In this document: one piece after another, positions 31,868 to 64,000 of the stretch | Layout: each line of letters starts with the position of its first letter | How positions within the stretch are numbered: position 1 is the first letter of the stretch | Assembly (NCBI GenBank): GCA_000002435.2 | Contig: CM018793.1 | DNA length: 64,000 bases | Source: Giardia intestinalis | Lineage: Eukaryota | Strand: one strand, 5' to 3' | Program-made: the position numbers and the translations under genes | The notes under the pieces: model-generated | What the model was told of the DNA's origin: nothing | The model's database searches: none | Seen by the model: only the letters and a program-made list of their open reading frames with translations

Positions 31868-34800
31868 TCACGCCTTCCCCCTGCAGAGGAACCACCAGCA
31901 GAGGAAGCCCACGAGGCCCCCCACGACAGCGATGACAGCCACGGAGATCCCTGCTATGGCACCAGTACTGAGGCCGCTCTTGTTGACGCTTCCGCCGGTG
32001 TTGTCGCCAGTGCCGTCGCCCATCACGAAGCACATGAACGCACCGGTGGATGACACCGTGCACTGCCTGCACCCAGCGAGCCCCTCAGAGCACGGATTAC
32101 ACTTTGTCCCAGCACTCTGCGGTTTGTAATATCCAGTGCTGCATGTAGCACAGGCGTTAGCGTCGTTAGCAGCCGTGCATGTCTCGCAGCTAAGATGGCA
32201 CCTTTTATTGGAACAATCGCCATTATCAGCCGTTAGACCACTGGCACATTTTGTACATTTTCCTCCCTGCACTGTAGTACACACTTGCTTGCCAGGCTGT
32301 CTATCTGTCTGATAGCAACCGCCATCTTTGAAGAAGTAGTTATTTTCACATTGAGTGCATGCTCCATTACTCACCGTAGTGCAAAATCGTGTTCGCGTAT
32401 TGGCCGCACAGTTGCCATCCAGTGGTGCCTGTTGAGTGTTCTTGCACTTTGAGCAGTATGCAGTTCCTCCTATCTGAGCCCCACACTCTGCGCATCCATC
32501 GTTTGTAGAACTCACGCTGCACTGGTTCATGCACGTGCCCCCATTGGCAGGAGTATCAGCATCTGTATACTGAAGCATCCTCCCAGCAGGACAAGCCGTA
32601 CACTTATCAGCGCCCTCACCCTTGCACTCTACGCACGCATCGTTGCACTTCTTGCACTTTCTGTCAGTGTCATTTCCGTAGTAGCCCTTGAGGGTCGTGC
32701 AGTCAGATACGCATTGACTGGTTGGGGTGAGGTAGTACTCAGACAGACACTTTGTACAGACCTCCTTATCGGCACCTTCACTGGTGCACTCCAAACAGTG
32801 CTCTGTGTTACAGTTACTGATTGGTTGGCATTCAGTCGATTCAGTATTAGGTTGGAGTCCTTCGTTGCACTCGCACACTTGGCTATCCTGTCCGGTGGCC
32901 TTGGGGGTAGAGTTAGCAGGGCAACTAGCAACGCACGACTTTCTGTTGAGACCAAAGATGGTCTTCGTATCAGTCGTACACGTCTTACAAACCACTCCGT
33001 TGGCGCCTTTCTCACAAGTGGTGCAGTCAGTTGTTCCAGCCGACACACATGTATTGCACTCCTTTGCTTCTTCATCAACGTAGTGGGTTGCCGGACAACC
33101 AGCTGTGTCAACGCACGTGCCGGTTGTGGACTCGCCATCCTTCTTCAGGTACTTCTTGGTCCCAGACGTTTTACACAGGCTGCACTTCTGTTGCTCCTTG
33201 GCCACGCACACAGCGCAATTATCATCTGCACACGCGGTGCACTTCTTCTCGGTAGCGTCGATGAAGAAGCCCTCCTCATTAGTACACGCCTCTGCGCTAA
33301 CACAGCTGGGTGCATCGCCAGCTTTAAAGTAGAATCCATCAACACACTCCCCACATATATTGTCCACCACACAGCTCTTGCAATCACCCACAGAGCATGT
33401 CACACACCCACTACCACCCTTGTTGGGCTTCTTACCACTGTCACAGGCAGTACACACAGCGACAGTCATACCAGCTGTTGTTAGAGCTGTCGGGGCTGTG
33501 CACTGAGAGCAGCCATCTACTCCCACGTATGCCTTAGCGGTACCTTGAGGATCTACTAGTGTGCCAAGGGAGTTGCCACATGCCAATACAGACTGCTGAG
33601 CATTGGATGCCCCTGGTACCAGGAAGTACTTATTATTCTCATTAACAGCGGTACAGACACCGTTGGCTGCTGTCTTGCACATGGACTTACCCGGCTGAGT
33701 TGACACACTATAGCAGCCTCCCATGTACAAGAAGTATCCTGTAGTACATGATGTACATGTATGATTGTTACAGTTATTCCCCTCTTTCTTTTCATTCCCA
33801 ACACATAGTCCATTAATGGGGAACTCACTGTCCTTTCCACAGTATGAACAGTAGTGATGCTCCTTCCCTGTGTTGTCGATCACTATTGCATCGCAGGCTC
33901 CAGAAGTACCACCACAAGCCGTGGGGTCTTCACAAGTCTTCTCACACGTGACCGCTCCTCCAGCCCCTACCTTCTTTTGGTAGTTCACCTTACAAGAGTC
34001 ACAAGTAAACGAGCCAGAGAGGGTGCACGTTGCACAGCCGGGCACTCCATCTGTCGGATCGTCGCATGGGACGCACTTCTTGGCCCCGTCATTCTTTAAG
34101 AAAAACCCTGGCTTGCACTTTTCACAGGTATCTATAGCGCCTCCTGGCCCGCACTTTCCGCAATCGCCAGCGCACGCAACGCATACGGCGGGGTTACCGT
34201 TCCCGCTGTCGTAGTAGCCATCGAGGCACGTCTTGCATTCTGGCTTAGCGCCGTTCTTGCTGCAGGTCCCGCAACCGGGGCTTCCCTTGTTATTATCTGT
34301 CTTGCTGCTATCGTTGCTACATAGTATGCATTCGGCATCTCCGTCGCTCAAGAAGTTCTCACCAGTTGCTCCGCTTTGAGTGCAGGTGCCGGCGTCTATA
34401 CACGTAGTCGTCCCGTCGGCCTCTTCCTTGACTATCTTAGCTCCATTACATGCCGTGCACTTTGGGCCCCCAGTTGCCGGGTTGTACTCACACGTGGTGC
34501 AATCAGTTATTGCAGACGCCTTGCAGGTCATTGTCACAGGGTCAGCATAAGTGTTTCCAGTGCATCCATCACTATTCACGCATGCATTATCCTTCAGGAA
34601 CGTATTTCCCTTACAAGAGGTACACTGGGTCTCTGTAGTCTCACAGGTCAGACAGGACTGATCACACTTCTCACATGTCTGAGCGTTCTTATAGTATCCA
34701 TCTCTGCAGGTATCACACGTGGCCGCTCCTGGACTACCACTTGGTGCCGTACATGTGGCGCAGTTAGCCACCCCTGTATATCCATCTGCCCCATTGACAT

Positions 34801-34920
34801 CATGACAGAGGATGCACTCGCTACCCTTCTCTGGTGTTGCAGCCGGGTTCTTGAACAGGCCGTTATCTGCCTTACAAGCAGTGCACAGTCCTCCCTCAGC
34901 CTTTGTGCATATCTCACTCC
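31868..34920 (-). CDS. VSP unit A: variant-specific surface protein-like cassette, ~1016 codons, intact ORF but no ATG or signal peptide
   Basis: Many CXXC motifs, GGCY motif (LYMGGCY), transmembrane helix [24 protein letters not shown] and the invariant tail CRGKA followed by TGA. The ORF track starts it at 34771 with a GTG. The frame stays open upstream to TGATAG..TGG AGT GAG ATA TGC (..WSEICTKAEGGLCTACKADNGLFKNPAATPEKGSECILCHDVNGADGYTGVANCATC). This is the 3'-most unit of the array and has a unique 3' flank. Confidence 0.85.
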
Positions 34921-34973
34921 ACTATCATACTATCACCCTCTATCACACCATTGTACAGCATTCACTACCCAAG
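34921..34973 (-). repeat. Inter-cassette spacer A|B
   Basis: Minus-strand sense: TGA cttggGTAGTGAATGctgtacaatggtGTGATAGagggTGATAGtaTGATAGtggagtgag|ATATGC. It holds the poly(A) signal AGTGAAT, TAGTGA, and three TGATAG heptamers that give stops in all three frames. Confidence 0.8.
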
Positions 34974-62380: not shown

Positions 62381-62429
62381 CTATCATACTATCACCCTAT
62401 CACACATTGTACAGCATTCACTACCTAAG
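62381..62429 (-). repeat. Inter-cassette spacer M|N
   Basis: Same family. Confidence 0.75.
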
Positions 62430-64000
62430 TCACGCCTTCCCCCTGCACACGAACCACCACAAGAAGCCCACGAGGCCCCCCACGACAGCGATGACAGCCA
62501 CGGAGATCCCTGCTATGGCACCAGTACTGAGGCCGCTCTTGTTGACGCTTCCGCCGGTGTTGTCGCCAGTGCCGTCGCCCATCACGAAGCACATGAACGC
62601 ACCGGTGGATGACACCGTGCACTGCCTGCACCCAGCGAGCCCCTCAGAGCACGGATTACACTTTGTCCCAGCACTCTGCGGTTTGTAATATCCAGTGCTG
62701 CATGTAGCACAGGCGTTAGCGTCGTTAGCAGCCGTGCATGTCTCGCAGCTAAGATGGCACCTTTTATTGGAACAATCGCCATTATCAGCCGTTAGACCAC
62801 TGGCACATTTTGTACATTTTCCTCCCTGCACTGTAGTACACACTTGCTTGCCAGGCTGTCTATCTGTCTGATAGCAACCGCCATCTTTGAGGAAGTAGTT
62901 ATTTTCACATTGAGTGCATGCTCCATTACTCACCGTAGTGCAAAATCGTGTTCGCGTATTGGCCGCACAGTTGCCATCCAGTGGTGCCTGTTGAGTGTTC
63001 TTGCACTTTGAGCAGTATGCAGTTCCTCCTATCTGAGCCCCACACTCTGCGCATCCATCGTTTGTAGAACTCACGCTGCACTGGTTCATGCACGTGCCCC
63101 CATTGGCAGGAGTATCAGCATCTGTATACTGAAGCATCCTCCCAGCAGGACAAGCCGTACACTTATCAGCGCCCTCACCCTTGCACTCTACGCACGCATC
63201 GTTGCACTTCTTGCACTTTCTGTCAGTGTCATTTCCGTAGTAGCCCTTGAGGGTCGTGCAGTCAGATACGCATTGACTGGTTGGGGTGAGGTAGTACTCA
63301 GACAGACACTTTGTACAGACCTCCTTATCGGCACCTTCACTGGTGCACTCCAAACAGTGCTCTGTGTTACAGTTACTGATTGGTTGGCATTCAGTCGATT
63401 CAGTATTAGGTTGGAGTCCTTCGTTGCACTCGCACACTTGGCTATCCTGTCCGGTGGCCTTGGGGGTAGAGTTAGCAGGGCAACTAGCAACGCACGACTT
63501 TCTGTTGAGACCAAAGATGGTCTTCGTATCAGTCGTACACGTCTTACAAACCACTCCGTTGGCGCCTTTCTCACAAGTGGTGCAGTCAGTTGTTCCAGCC
63601 GACACACATGTATTGCACTCCTTTGCTTCTTCATCAACGTAGTGGGTTGCCGGACAACCAGCTGTGTCAACGCACGTGCCGGTTGTGGACTCGCCATCCT
63701 TCTTCAGGTACTTCTTGGTCCCAGACGTTTTACACAGGCTGCACTTCTGTTGCTCCTTGGCCACGCACACAGCGCAATTATCATCTGCACACGCGGTGCA
63801 CTTCTTCTCGGTAGCGTCGATGAAGAAGCCCTCCTCATTAGTACACGCCTCTGCGCTAACACAGCTGGGTGCATCGCCAGCTTTAAAGTAGAATCCATCA
63901 ACACACTCCCCACATATATTGTCCACCACACAGCTCTTGCAATCACCCACAGAGCATGTCACACACCCACTACCACCCTTGTTGGGCTTCTTACCACTGT
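62430..64000 (-). CDS. VSP unit N: long-type VSP-like cassette, 3' part only (5' end beyond window)
   Basis: Same shared long-type 3' module as A, D, F, K. It ends ..[18 protein letters not shown] 3-nt net deletion (ccaccacaagaagccc vs ccaccagcagaggaagccc) removes the Cys of FLCWWF in frame. Confidence 0.8.
   Translation of the reverse strand, partial: SGKKPNKGGSGCVTCSVGDCKSCVVDNICGECVDGFYFKAGDAPSCVSAEACTNEEGFFIDATEKKCTACADDNCAVCVAKEQQKCSLCKTSGTKKYLKKDGESTTGTCVDTAGCPATHYVDEEAKECNTCVSAGTTDCTTCEKGANGVVCKTCTTDTKTIFGLNRKSCVASCPANSTPKATGQDSQVCECNEGLQPNTESTECQPISNCNTEHCLECTSEGADKEVCTKCLSEYYLTPTSQCVSDCTTLKGYYGNDTDRKCKKCNDACVECKGEGADKCTACPAGRMLQYTDADTPANGGTCMNQCSVSSTNDGCAECGAQIGGTAYCSKCKNTQQAPLDGNCAANTRTRFCTTVSNGACTQCENNYFLKDGGCYQTDRQPGKQVCTTVQGGKCTKCASGLTADNGDCSNKRCHLSCETCTAANDANACATCSTGYYKPQSAGTKCNPCSEGLAGCRQCTVSSTGAFMCFVMGDGTGDNTGGSVNKSGLSTGAIAGISVAVIAVVGGLVGFLWWFVCRGKA

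Follow-up and report, generated by a model that had tools for sequence, protein, structure and literature searches.

How do copies in a single tandem array come to be identical over more than a kilobase and only about 55 per cent identical elsewhere? The question is raised by a 64,000-nt stretch of Giardia intestinalis contig CM018793.1 (GenBank assembly GCA_000002435.2), referred to here as the window. Its positions 31868–64000 carry, all on the minus strand, at least fourteen head-to-tail, start-less units resembling genes for variant-specific surface proteins (VSPs), labelled A to N. We consider it very probable, at roughly 85 per cent, that this region is a silent psiVSP linear array of strain WB whose content keeps changing through ectopic gene conversion guided by homology and, to some extent, unequal exchange. 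An earlier interpretation made from the letters and open reading frames (ORFs) of the window (the sequence-only reading) had proposed gene conversion or unequal crossing-over among the units, and that proposal is supported by in-frame homologous switches, bounded identity tracts, clustered alleles from third units, and the contrast in synonymous divergence (dS).

Each unit ends on the minus strand with codons for CRGKA and a stop, and these ends lie at 31868, 34974, 36909, 38823, 41940, 43753, 46886, 48681, 50487, 53600, 55502, 58625, 60554, and 62430. The sequence-only reading had drawn the boundary between M and L elsewhere; it is corrected here to 60554, with M spanning 60554–62429. The six long units, of about 3.1 kb, comprise A, D, F, I, K, and N (N being clipped by the end of the window), and the remaining eight are short, at 1.8–1.9 kb. 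The head of the array is beyond the end of the window, which takes in thirteen complete units and part of N. The proteins encoded by three flanking genes are identical to KAE8304676, KAE8304677, and KAE8304680 of G. intestinalis WB (ATCC 50803), from the 2020 PacBio reference. The assignment to assemblage A that the sequence-only reading had presumed is thereby confirmed.

The units are recognizable as VSPs. Matches to the VSP family PF03302 score 129–279 bits for A, B, E, and J (gathering cutoff 31.4), with E = 1e-82 for unit A, and all fourteen units close with a transmembrane helix, the coding end FLCWWF(V/I/L)CRGKA, and a stop (N is short of one helix cysteine). Intact units contain 11.8–12.5% cysteine, 24–45 CXXC motifs, and one or two GGCY motifs each. 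In ten of the thirteen complete units the frame runs uninterrupted to CRGKA across all junctions, for 577–1023 codons. None of the units has an in-frame ATG near its 5′ end; the first in-frame methionine comes at codon 49–284, and full-length VSPs with a signal peptide align to the cassette start only from their residue ~103–106. Judging from their sequence, the units would lack both the start codon and the N-terminal signal peptide, unlike functional VSP genes.

The spacers, too, share a common build. Spacer and lead together take up 82–108 nt to the first conserved coding motif, with about 50 nt from a stop to the next open frame. The order is stop, CTT(G/A)GGTAGTGAATGC, an initiator (Inr)-like CAATG, three to five copies of TGATAG/TGATAA, and then the open frame at WSEICTKAEGGLCTAC. 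The 5′ lead of unit A (34886..34973, minus strand) is an example, with its extended poly(A) signal, Inr-like CAATG, and TGATAG repeats; the same arrangement stands before every complete unit, and further spacers of this build lie at 36801–36908 and 38736–38822. The repeats, whose number differs between units, place stops in all three frames of every spacer, and because of these stops the units are not translatable either alone or as a read-through fusion. The Inr-like motif reads CAATGTG, CAATGGG, or CAATGGT, one or two bases off PyAATGTT; it is out of frame and followed by the stops. Every internal stop is followed by (TG)ACTT(G/A)GGTAGTGAATGC, with CTCAGG in D and A. The G variant of this signal is one position off ACTTAGRTAGTRAAYRY, the extended poly(A) consensus reported as VSP-specific and located just 3′ of the stop (bioRxiv 10.1101/2022.03.07.483299). 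Head-to-tail copies, very short spacers, and members in view with no Inr, start codon, or signal peptide are the features of psiVSP linear arrays, in which spacers of ~60 bp, ranging from overlapping to 241 bp, have been described (Adam et al. 2010; Xu et al. 2020).

The largest shared block is a module in the 3′ part of the long units. Its core corresponds to nt 1540–3000 of unit A (1461 nt) and is common to A (31974–33434), D (38929–40389), F (43859–45319), I (50593–52052), K (55608–57068), and N (62533–63993), as found by exact-match comparison. Across the six copies there are two private differences in total, a 1-nt deletion in a G run in I and one single-nucleotide polymorphism in A. The sequence-only reading had described a module of ~1.75 kb in A, D, F, K, N, and the 3′ half of I. 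Sharing extends to all six, and only in A, D, F, and I does it reach ~1.7 kb, with the first ~120 nt patchy. K, which had been credited with the full module, shares just the 1461 nt; over its last ~105 nt, identity is 92%. Six 169-aa ORFs within the module had been read as an antisense track. They are identical, for the sole reason that the underlying DNA is, and they are read from the cassette strand itself, in a different frame. With no Pfam hit either, we rejected them as real or antisense genes.

Beyond the module, the cassettes are mosaics of shared blocks, as had been proposed, though the identity of the blocks is near 100% rather than perfect. Between non-adjacent units the longest exact matches are D/F at 1666 nt, F/N at 1538, D/N at 1501, and K/D/F/N at 1461, followed by C/L at 1334, A/D at 1233, A/H at 922, and B/C/L/I at 812. 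In a multiple alignment, pairwise identity jumps sharply between 40–65% and 100%, and the distribution over all unit pairs is bimodal: 20% of 100-nt windows have exactly 100% identity, and in 62% identity falls below 80%.

Unit H (48681..50486) is a short mosaic. In unit coordinates it is C/K-like over 1–101, F-like over 184–440 (window positions 50047–50303), A/D-like over 415–1336 (49151–50072), and E-like over 1504–1643 (48844–48983). The earlier order of F-like, A/D-like, and C/E-like parts stands and the extents nearly so; the 3′ block maps as E-like and the first 101 nt as C/K-like. Unit I (50487..53599), a long mosaic, is E-like over 36–181 (53419–53564), G-like over 166–421 (53179–53434), B/C/L-like over 520–1331 (52269–53080), and F/D/A-like from 1287 to its end (the module, 50503–52313), in the order that had been given for it and with nearly the same extents. 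Unit L (58625..60553) is a copy of the B/C type in which alleles of the two are mixed, B alleles in the spacer and over 1603–1761 and C alleles over 322–1521, with private 1-nt deletions at its 5′ end. Unit K (55502..58624) is C/H/A-like over its 5′ ~380 nt and unique over 382–1556, upstream of its module core. These allele and block maps agree with the mixing of B and C variants claimed for L, and with the A-like 5′ codons and divergent middle claimed for K.

A GENECONV-type permutation test (922 polymorphic sites, 500 permutations) found the longest runs of agreeing sites to be beyond anything in the permuted data. The run between A and H was 590 sites against a permutation maximum of 85, and that between B/C/L and I was 494 against 46–48. 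For J–M, F–H, and G–I the corresponding values were 187 against 23, 161 against 21, and 110 against 24 (P ≤ 0.002 for every listed pair). The recombination test and the mapping of breakpoints, both of which the sequence-only reading had named as checks on its proposal, therefore bear it out.

The breakpoints themselves fall where the parental sequences agree. Clean switches from one parent to another lie in tracts of 16–62 nt that are identical between the parents (the median identical run is 2 nt). The switch in H from F-like to A/D-like sequence is inside a 26-nt tract identical in both parents, and that in I from B/C-like to F-like sequence is inside a 45-nt run, the longest identity between C and F. 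The conserved motifs GTC(M/K)ACSTI and CKTAANGVCTAVN, at which the sequence-only reading had put switch points, were located in the places it gave. Identity tracts nearly all start and end within units and are bounded on both sides. Where A differs from D (38823..41939; 98.4% identical, differences in three clusters), and where B, C, and L differ from one another, the differences are grouped in short patches that are mostly alleles carried by third units, which fits small conversion tracts and not scattered point mutation.

Synonymous sites give two very different ages for the pieces. A count inside and outside the shared blocks, also proposed earlier as a check, gave no substitutions inside (dS = 0) and saturation outside, where the proportion of synonymous differences (pS) is 0.51–0.73 and dN/dS is 0.12–0.31. 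Saturated synonymous sites together with low dN/dS indicate that the unshared parts go back to ancient VSP lineages, whose divergence took place as coding sequence, and that the shared parts are very recent copies. The unshared blocks evolved under purifying selection, and the array is thus made up of ancient sequence types shuffled recently. The claim of ongoing exchange among units in place of old paralogues holds for the recent exchange; the unshared blocks are old and deeply diverged, and 'ongoing' is not demonstrable from one assembly.

The mechanism that we favour would work as follows. The units would derive from several deeply diverged VSP sequence types. All copies start at one homologous point ~100 codons into a full-length VSP, which leaves them with neither start codon nor signal peptide. 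What each retains is an ectodomain rich in CXXC, a transmembrane helix, and the CRGKA tail, followed by the poly(A) signal specific to VSPs. Repair of a break templated by another unit of the array would copy tracts of ~30 nt to 1.7 kb between units. As mitotic homologous recombination, it would yield mostly non-crossover conversion; now and then, unequal exchange between sister chromatids would duplicate or delete units. Exchange would begin and end in short stretches conserved between types, such as CKTAANGVCT and the motifs flanking CXXC, and the outcome would be in-frame mosaics with bimodal identity, 100% against ~55%. Abrupt switches, bounded tracts, allele clusters, and the dS contrast are predicted by ectopic conversion and not by duplication followed by divergence. 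Some unequal exchange is needed as well, because B (34974–36908) and C (36909–38822), each with an intact 620-codon frame, are adjacent and near-identical (99.2%). A 1166-nt exact match links these two to L.

A more ambitious version of this reading makes the array an active generator of diversity at the DNA level, in which unit number and blocks change on laboratory time scales and blocks pass to and from full-length genes for VSPs and high cysteine membrane proteins (HCMPs). We regard this as possible but doubtful. Change on laboratory time scales is hinted at by the disagreement between the 2007 and 2020 WB assemblies in the interval from E to A. Traffic with full-length genes is hinted at by blocks of M and J that occur in three full-length WB genes with signal peptides, P0070, P0101, and P0057, and in a solitary VSP of the AII isolate DH. 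The three WB genes share identical runs of 64–125 aa with M or J, with flanks at 20–60% identity at the protein level. P0101, annotated as a high cysteine membrane protein group 1 and ending in IYRGRK, is identical over 125 aa to M nt 769–1143 (window 61287–61661), a stretch of M that has no partner within the array. Residues 369–545 (177) of the 708-aa VSP P0070 match M at all but two positions (~98%), after which there is a 12-residue gap in the match, and the 720-aa VSP P0057 has 64 residues identical to J. We tentatively identify P0070 as GL50803_111732, on the strength of the 708-aa length, the chromosome, and the clade given in the table of Adam et al. (2010). Intact VSPs in WB number 133–136. 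Unit J itself holds blocks of amino-acid identity with both P0057 and P0070.

The DH gene (AHGT01000044.1, 6300–8453) resembles P0070 at its two ends and J in its middle part, which matches J 545–762 over 218 nt with one mismatch. Its annotated N-terminus is apparently in the wrong frame; the other frame gives LAAPCQPDGDHAASCQTDKCET, which is P0070-like. We considered this gene as a recent recipient and set that aside: its overall identity to J is 90%, with short tracts at 98–100%, which suggests exchange and does not demonstrate recency. Together these matches suggest that block exchange may also reach expressible genes, with no direction or timing implied. In a protein search with unit A, the 3′ module had no close match among annotated proteins outside the array; the top hit reached 70% amino-acid identity to the part held by N. 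The closest relative is XP_001707661.1 (887 aa, 91% identical), which we tentatively equate with vsp59 of the chromosome 4 array from its 887-aa length and linear-array status. If the more ambitious version were true, epigenetic switching in Giardia would be supplemented by a recombinational layer of antigen diversification, comparable with the one that forms mosaic VSGs.

One competitor to conversion is birth and death: recent tandem or segmental duplication by unequal crossing-over would account for most of the pattern, with little or no patch-wise conversion. The near-identity of the neighbours B and C is what such a process would leave, and the number of units may differ between assemblies. 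The boundary between H and I equals that between K and L over 212 nt, which is also the only exact repeat of at least 60 nt that crosses a unit boundary; identity tracts otherwise stop on both sides inside units. No two of the six module copies have the same sequence downstream: five are followed by different units, and that of A by the non-array flank. In addition, pairs that are otherwise identical are broken up by the small clusters of third-unit alleles. Whole-unit homogenization across boundaries, as in concerted evolution of the rDNA type, is not what we see either, with mean 5′-half identity between units at ~65–70% and that single boundary-crossing repeat.

A further argument for duplication is the order of long (L) and short (S) units. 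From A to N they run L S S L S, L S S L S, L S S L, a regular period of five; by our own count, 6 of the 3003 arrangements of six long and eight short units fit it. Sequence similarity does not follow this period: at an offset of five, identity between 5′ halves is 0.653, no higher than background and the lowest value for any offset. We therefore rejected a five-unit higher-order repeat, and the regularity is unexplained. Likewise rejected was an origin of the long units as recent fusions of two short ones, the two halves of A being only ~25% identical. On this evidence we judge it unlikely that duplication accounts for most of the pattern.

A different kind of explanation makes the array mainly regulatory and not a recombination reservoir: transcribed conserved 3′ ends and unit bodies would feed RNAi or small-RNA silencing of VSPs, and homogenization would be a side effect. 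The units do retain an Inr-like motif and the poly(A) signal of VSPs, it is established that RNAi controls VSPs, and some pVSPs are reported to be differentially expressed (PMC8700996). However, psiVSP genes of G. muris are essentially all non-transcribed (Xu et al. 2020, PMC7641422), and a regulatory role leaves unexplained the mosaics, which require DNA exchange in any case. It too seems improbable as the main explanation.

Several points count against conversion among cassettes, the reading that we prefer. The array was read in one assembly only, and gene conversion and layered unequal crossovers are not fully separable from static sequence. The L S S L S order hints at block duplication, which conversion does not explain. 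Our evidence consists of DNA and protein sequence. Between E and A, the 2007 assembly has E, one 427-aa unit, and A, and the PacBio assembly has E-D-C-B-A (B, C, and D together at 34974–41939); either an old repeat collapse or assembly error, or a real difference in copy number between WB stocks, would account for this. None of the old protein models corresponds exactly to B, C, D, F, H, I, K, or L. Finally, short-read Logan contigs from seven public read sets end 515–530 nt upstream of the 4893-aa gene next to the array; they reach only ~27 nt into the conserved tail of unit A, and the array is thus invisible to short-read assemblies.

These discrepancies bear on the reliability of the assembly. 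An exact look-up of the unit ORFs in the protein collection matched only A, E, and G, each to a 2007 Sanger model: unit A from its first ATG (887 aa) is exactly XP_001705785.1, the unit E ORF (499 aa) is exactly XP_001705783.1, and the unit G ORF is exactly XP_001703933.1, a model that spans the block junctions of G. Exact agreement across mosaic junctions in independently obtained Sanger models argues against assembly chimeras. The PacBio assembly had a read N50 of 12.7 kb at 200x coverage and no misassemblies by split-read checks, and its authors concede that some homopolymer frameshifts remain (Xu et al. 2020, Sci Data 7:38).

The frame of unit I is broken at ~53276 and ~51099, in both places by GGGG reading GGG relative to otherwise identical copies. 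These contractions may be PacBio homopolymer errors, and Illumina correction is ineffective for G-run contractions in multi-copy sequence. The supplementary table of Adam et al. (2010) lists a chromosome 5 linear array that consists of vsp110 (499 aa), vsp111 (427 aa), and vsp112 (887 aa) and comes after the 5′-incomplete vsp109, and the order of the old accessions puts XP_001705783.1 and XP_001705785.1 beside the ankyrin gene that flanks the window. We take vsp109–112 to be the 3′ end of the array from the lengths of 499, 427, and 887 aa, the chromosome, and the accession order, the table being without sequences.

That the mosaics are artefacts of a long-read assembler collapsing or chimerizing near-identical VSP copies is thus very unlikely: the conflicting unit number, the units unmatched in older models, the G-run contractions of a type that the assembly authors admit, and the short-read contigs that break at the array edge are outweighed by residue-for-residue identity of A, E, and G to junction-spanning Sanger-era models, by reads far longer than both the longest exact repeat (1.67 kb) and the 3.1-kb unit at a depth where split-read checks found no misassembly, and by long 100% tracts already present in Sanger data from such arrays (Adam et al. 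2010, PMC2996952).

Conversion among silent cassettes also agrees with what has been described for this class of array. Linear arrays of VSPs in WB, the same genome and the same class as the array in the window, have ~60-bp spacers, and their downstream members are devoid of the Inr, the ATG, and the signal peptide (Adam et al. 2010, BMC Genomics 11:424; Xu et al. 2020, Sci Data 7:38). Adam et al. (2010) also noted 'long regions of 100% identity' and significant GENECONV results, and put forward the idea of a cassette reservoir. The reading of such arrays as reservoirs for gene conversion appears again in the paper on the genome of G. muris (Xu et al. 2020, PMC7641422) and in a 2022 preprint (bioRxiv 10.1101/2022.03.07.483299). 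Elements of this class, their recombination signal, and the idea of a reservoir have all been published before, and the fine breakpoint map is a new detail, not a new phenomenon. The 2010 description was based on a fragmented Sanger assembly with about four units at this place, in contrast to at least fourteen units and a base-level map of breakpoints here; we found no such map in the literature searched. The psiVSP arrays of G. muris are telomere-adjacent (Xu et al. 2020, Microb Genom 6:mgen000402), whereas the array in the window adjoins ordinary housekeeping-type genes on its 3′ side. Long-read work has found within-isolate structural variants to be enriched for VSPs. Kilobase-scale, non-reciprocal conversion tracts have been reported in asexual AI Giardia, enriched for VSP and GC-rich genes (Nat Commun 2025, PMC12669663); these represent exchange between lineages, detected from SNPs in annotated genes, in contrast to the exchange within one array of pseudogene cassettes described here.

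Similar systems are known from other pathogens. The VSG genes of T. brucei, the MSG genes of Pneumocystis, vls of Borrelia, and msp2 of Anaplasma likewise involve arrays of truncated silent copies and in-frame mosaics formed through conserved motifs, and the comparison with Pneumocystis and T. brucei has been drawn before (Xu et al. 2020, PMC7641422). Non-expressible cassettes and in-frame mosaics joined at conserved motifs are likewise what the array in the window contains. Those systems have a defined expression site that receives segments on switching; in the window, exchange runs from cassette to cassette, and no recipient expression site or directional transfer is seen within it. A role as a reservoir for expressed VSPs may apply to this array.

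Switching of VSPs in Giardia is regarded as epigenetic or RNAi-based. Antigenic variation in this organism is usually explained with no rearrangement of DNA. If new surface antigens have a hidden source in recombination, the main candidate for it is the pseudo-VSP arrays. The present array is an unusually clean record of exchange at base level in an AI lineage regarded as asexual, with six 1.46-kb copies that hold two differences beside sequence at ~55% identity. The locus could serve as an assay for antigen diversification by DNA recombination, and its value is in this detail and testability, not in discovery.

The remaining units fill in the map of shared blocks (all on the minus strand). 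Unit A (31868..34973, 3106 nt), a long unit, is the 3′-terminal cassette, with a 1017-codon open frame and its first methionine at codon 131. Unit E (41940..43752, short) is mostly unique, with F/I-like blocks at its 5′ end and an H-like block at 1517–1656. Unit F (43753..46885, long) has a 5′ half that is unique except for an H-like block at 194–450, and a 3′ half made up of the shared module. Unit G (46886..48680, short) is composed in part of an I-like block (166–422), an A/D/F/I-like block (1379–1640), and an E-like block (1619–1710). Unit J (53600..55501, short) is mostly unique, with an M-like block (54222–54506 and onward) and a B/C/L-like 3′ part. Unit M (60554..62429, short) combines J-like and B/C/L-like blocks and is degenerate, with at least three frame disruptions; its decay includes several 1-nt deletions or frameshifts and a premature TAG at 61011–61013. 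Unit N (62430..64000), of the long type with its 5′ part outside the window, carries the shared module.

The tails of units N and A differ slightly from the rest. In N (62430–62520) an in-frame 3-nt deletion drops a transmembrane cysteine, changing FLCWWF to FLWWF. Unit A (31868–31890) is the only unit with FLCRGKA in place of F(V/I)CRGKA, owing to two private substitutions. Directly downstream of the array is the 4893-aa ORF (16685–31366, minus strand), which has no Pfam hit on record and whose residues are all conserved in several public read sets of Giardia. The GC content of the array is 52.0%, compared with 46.9% in the flank.

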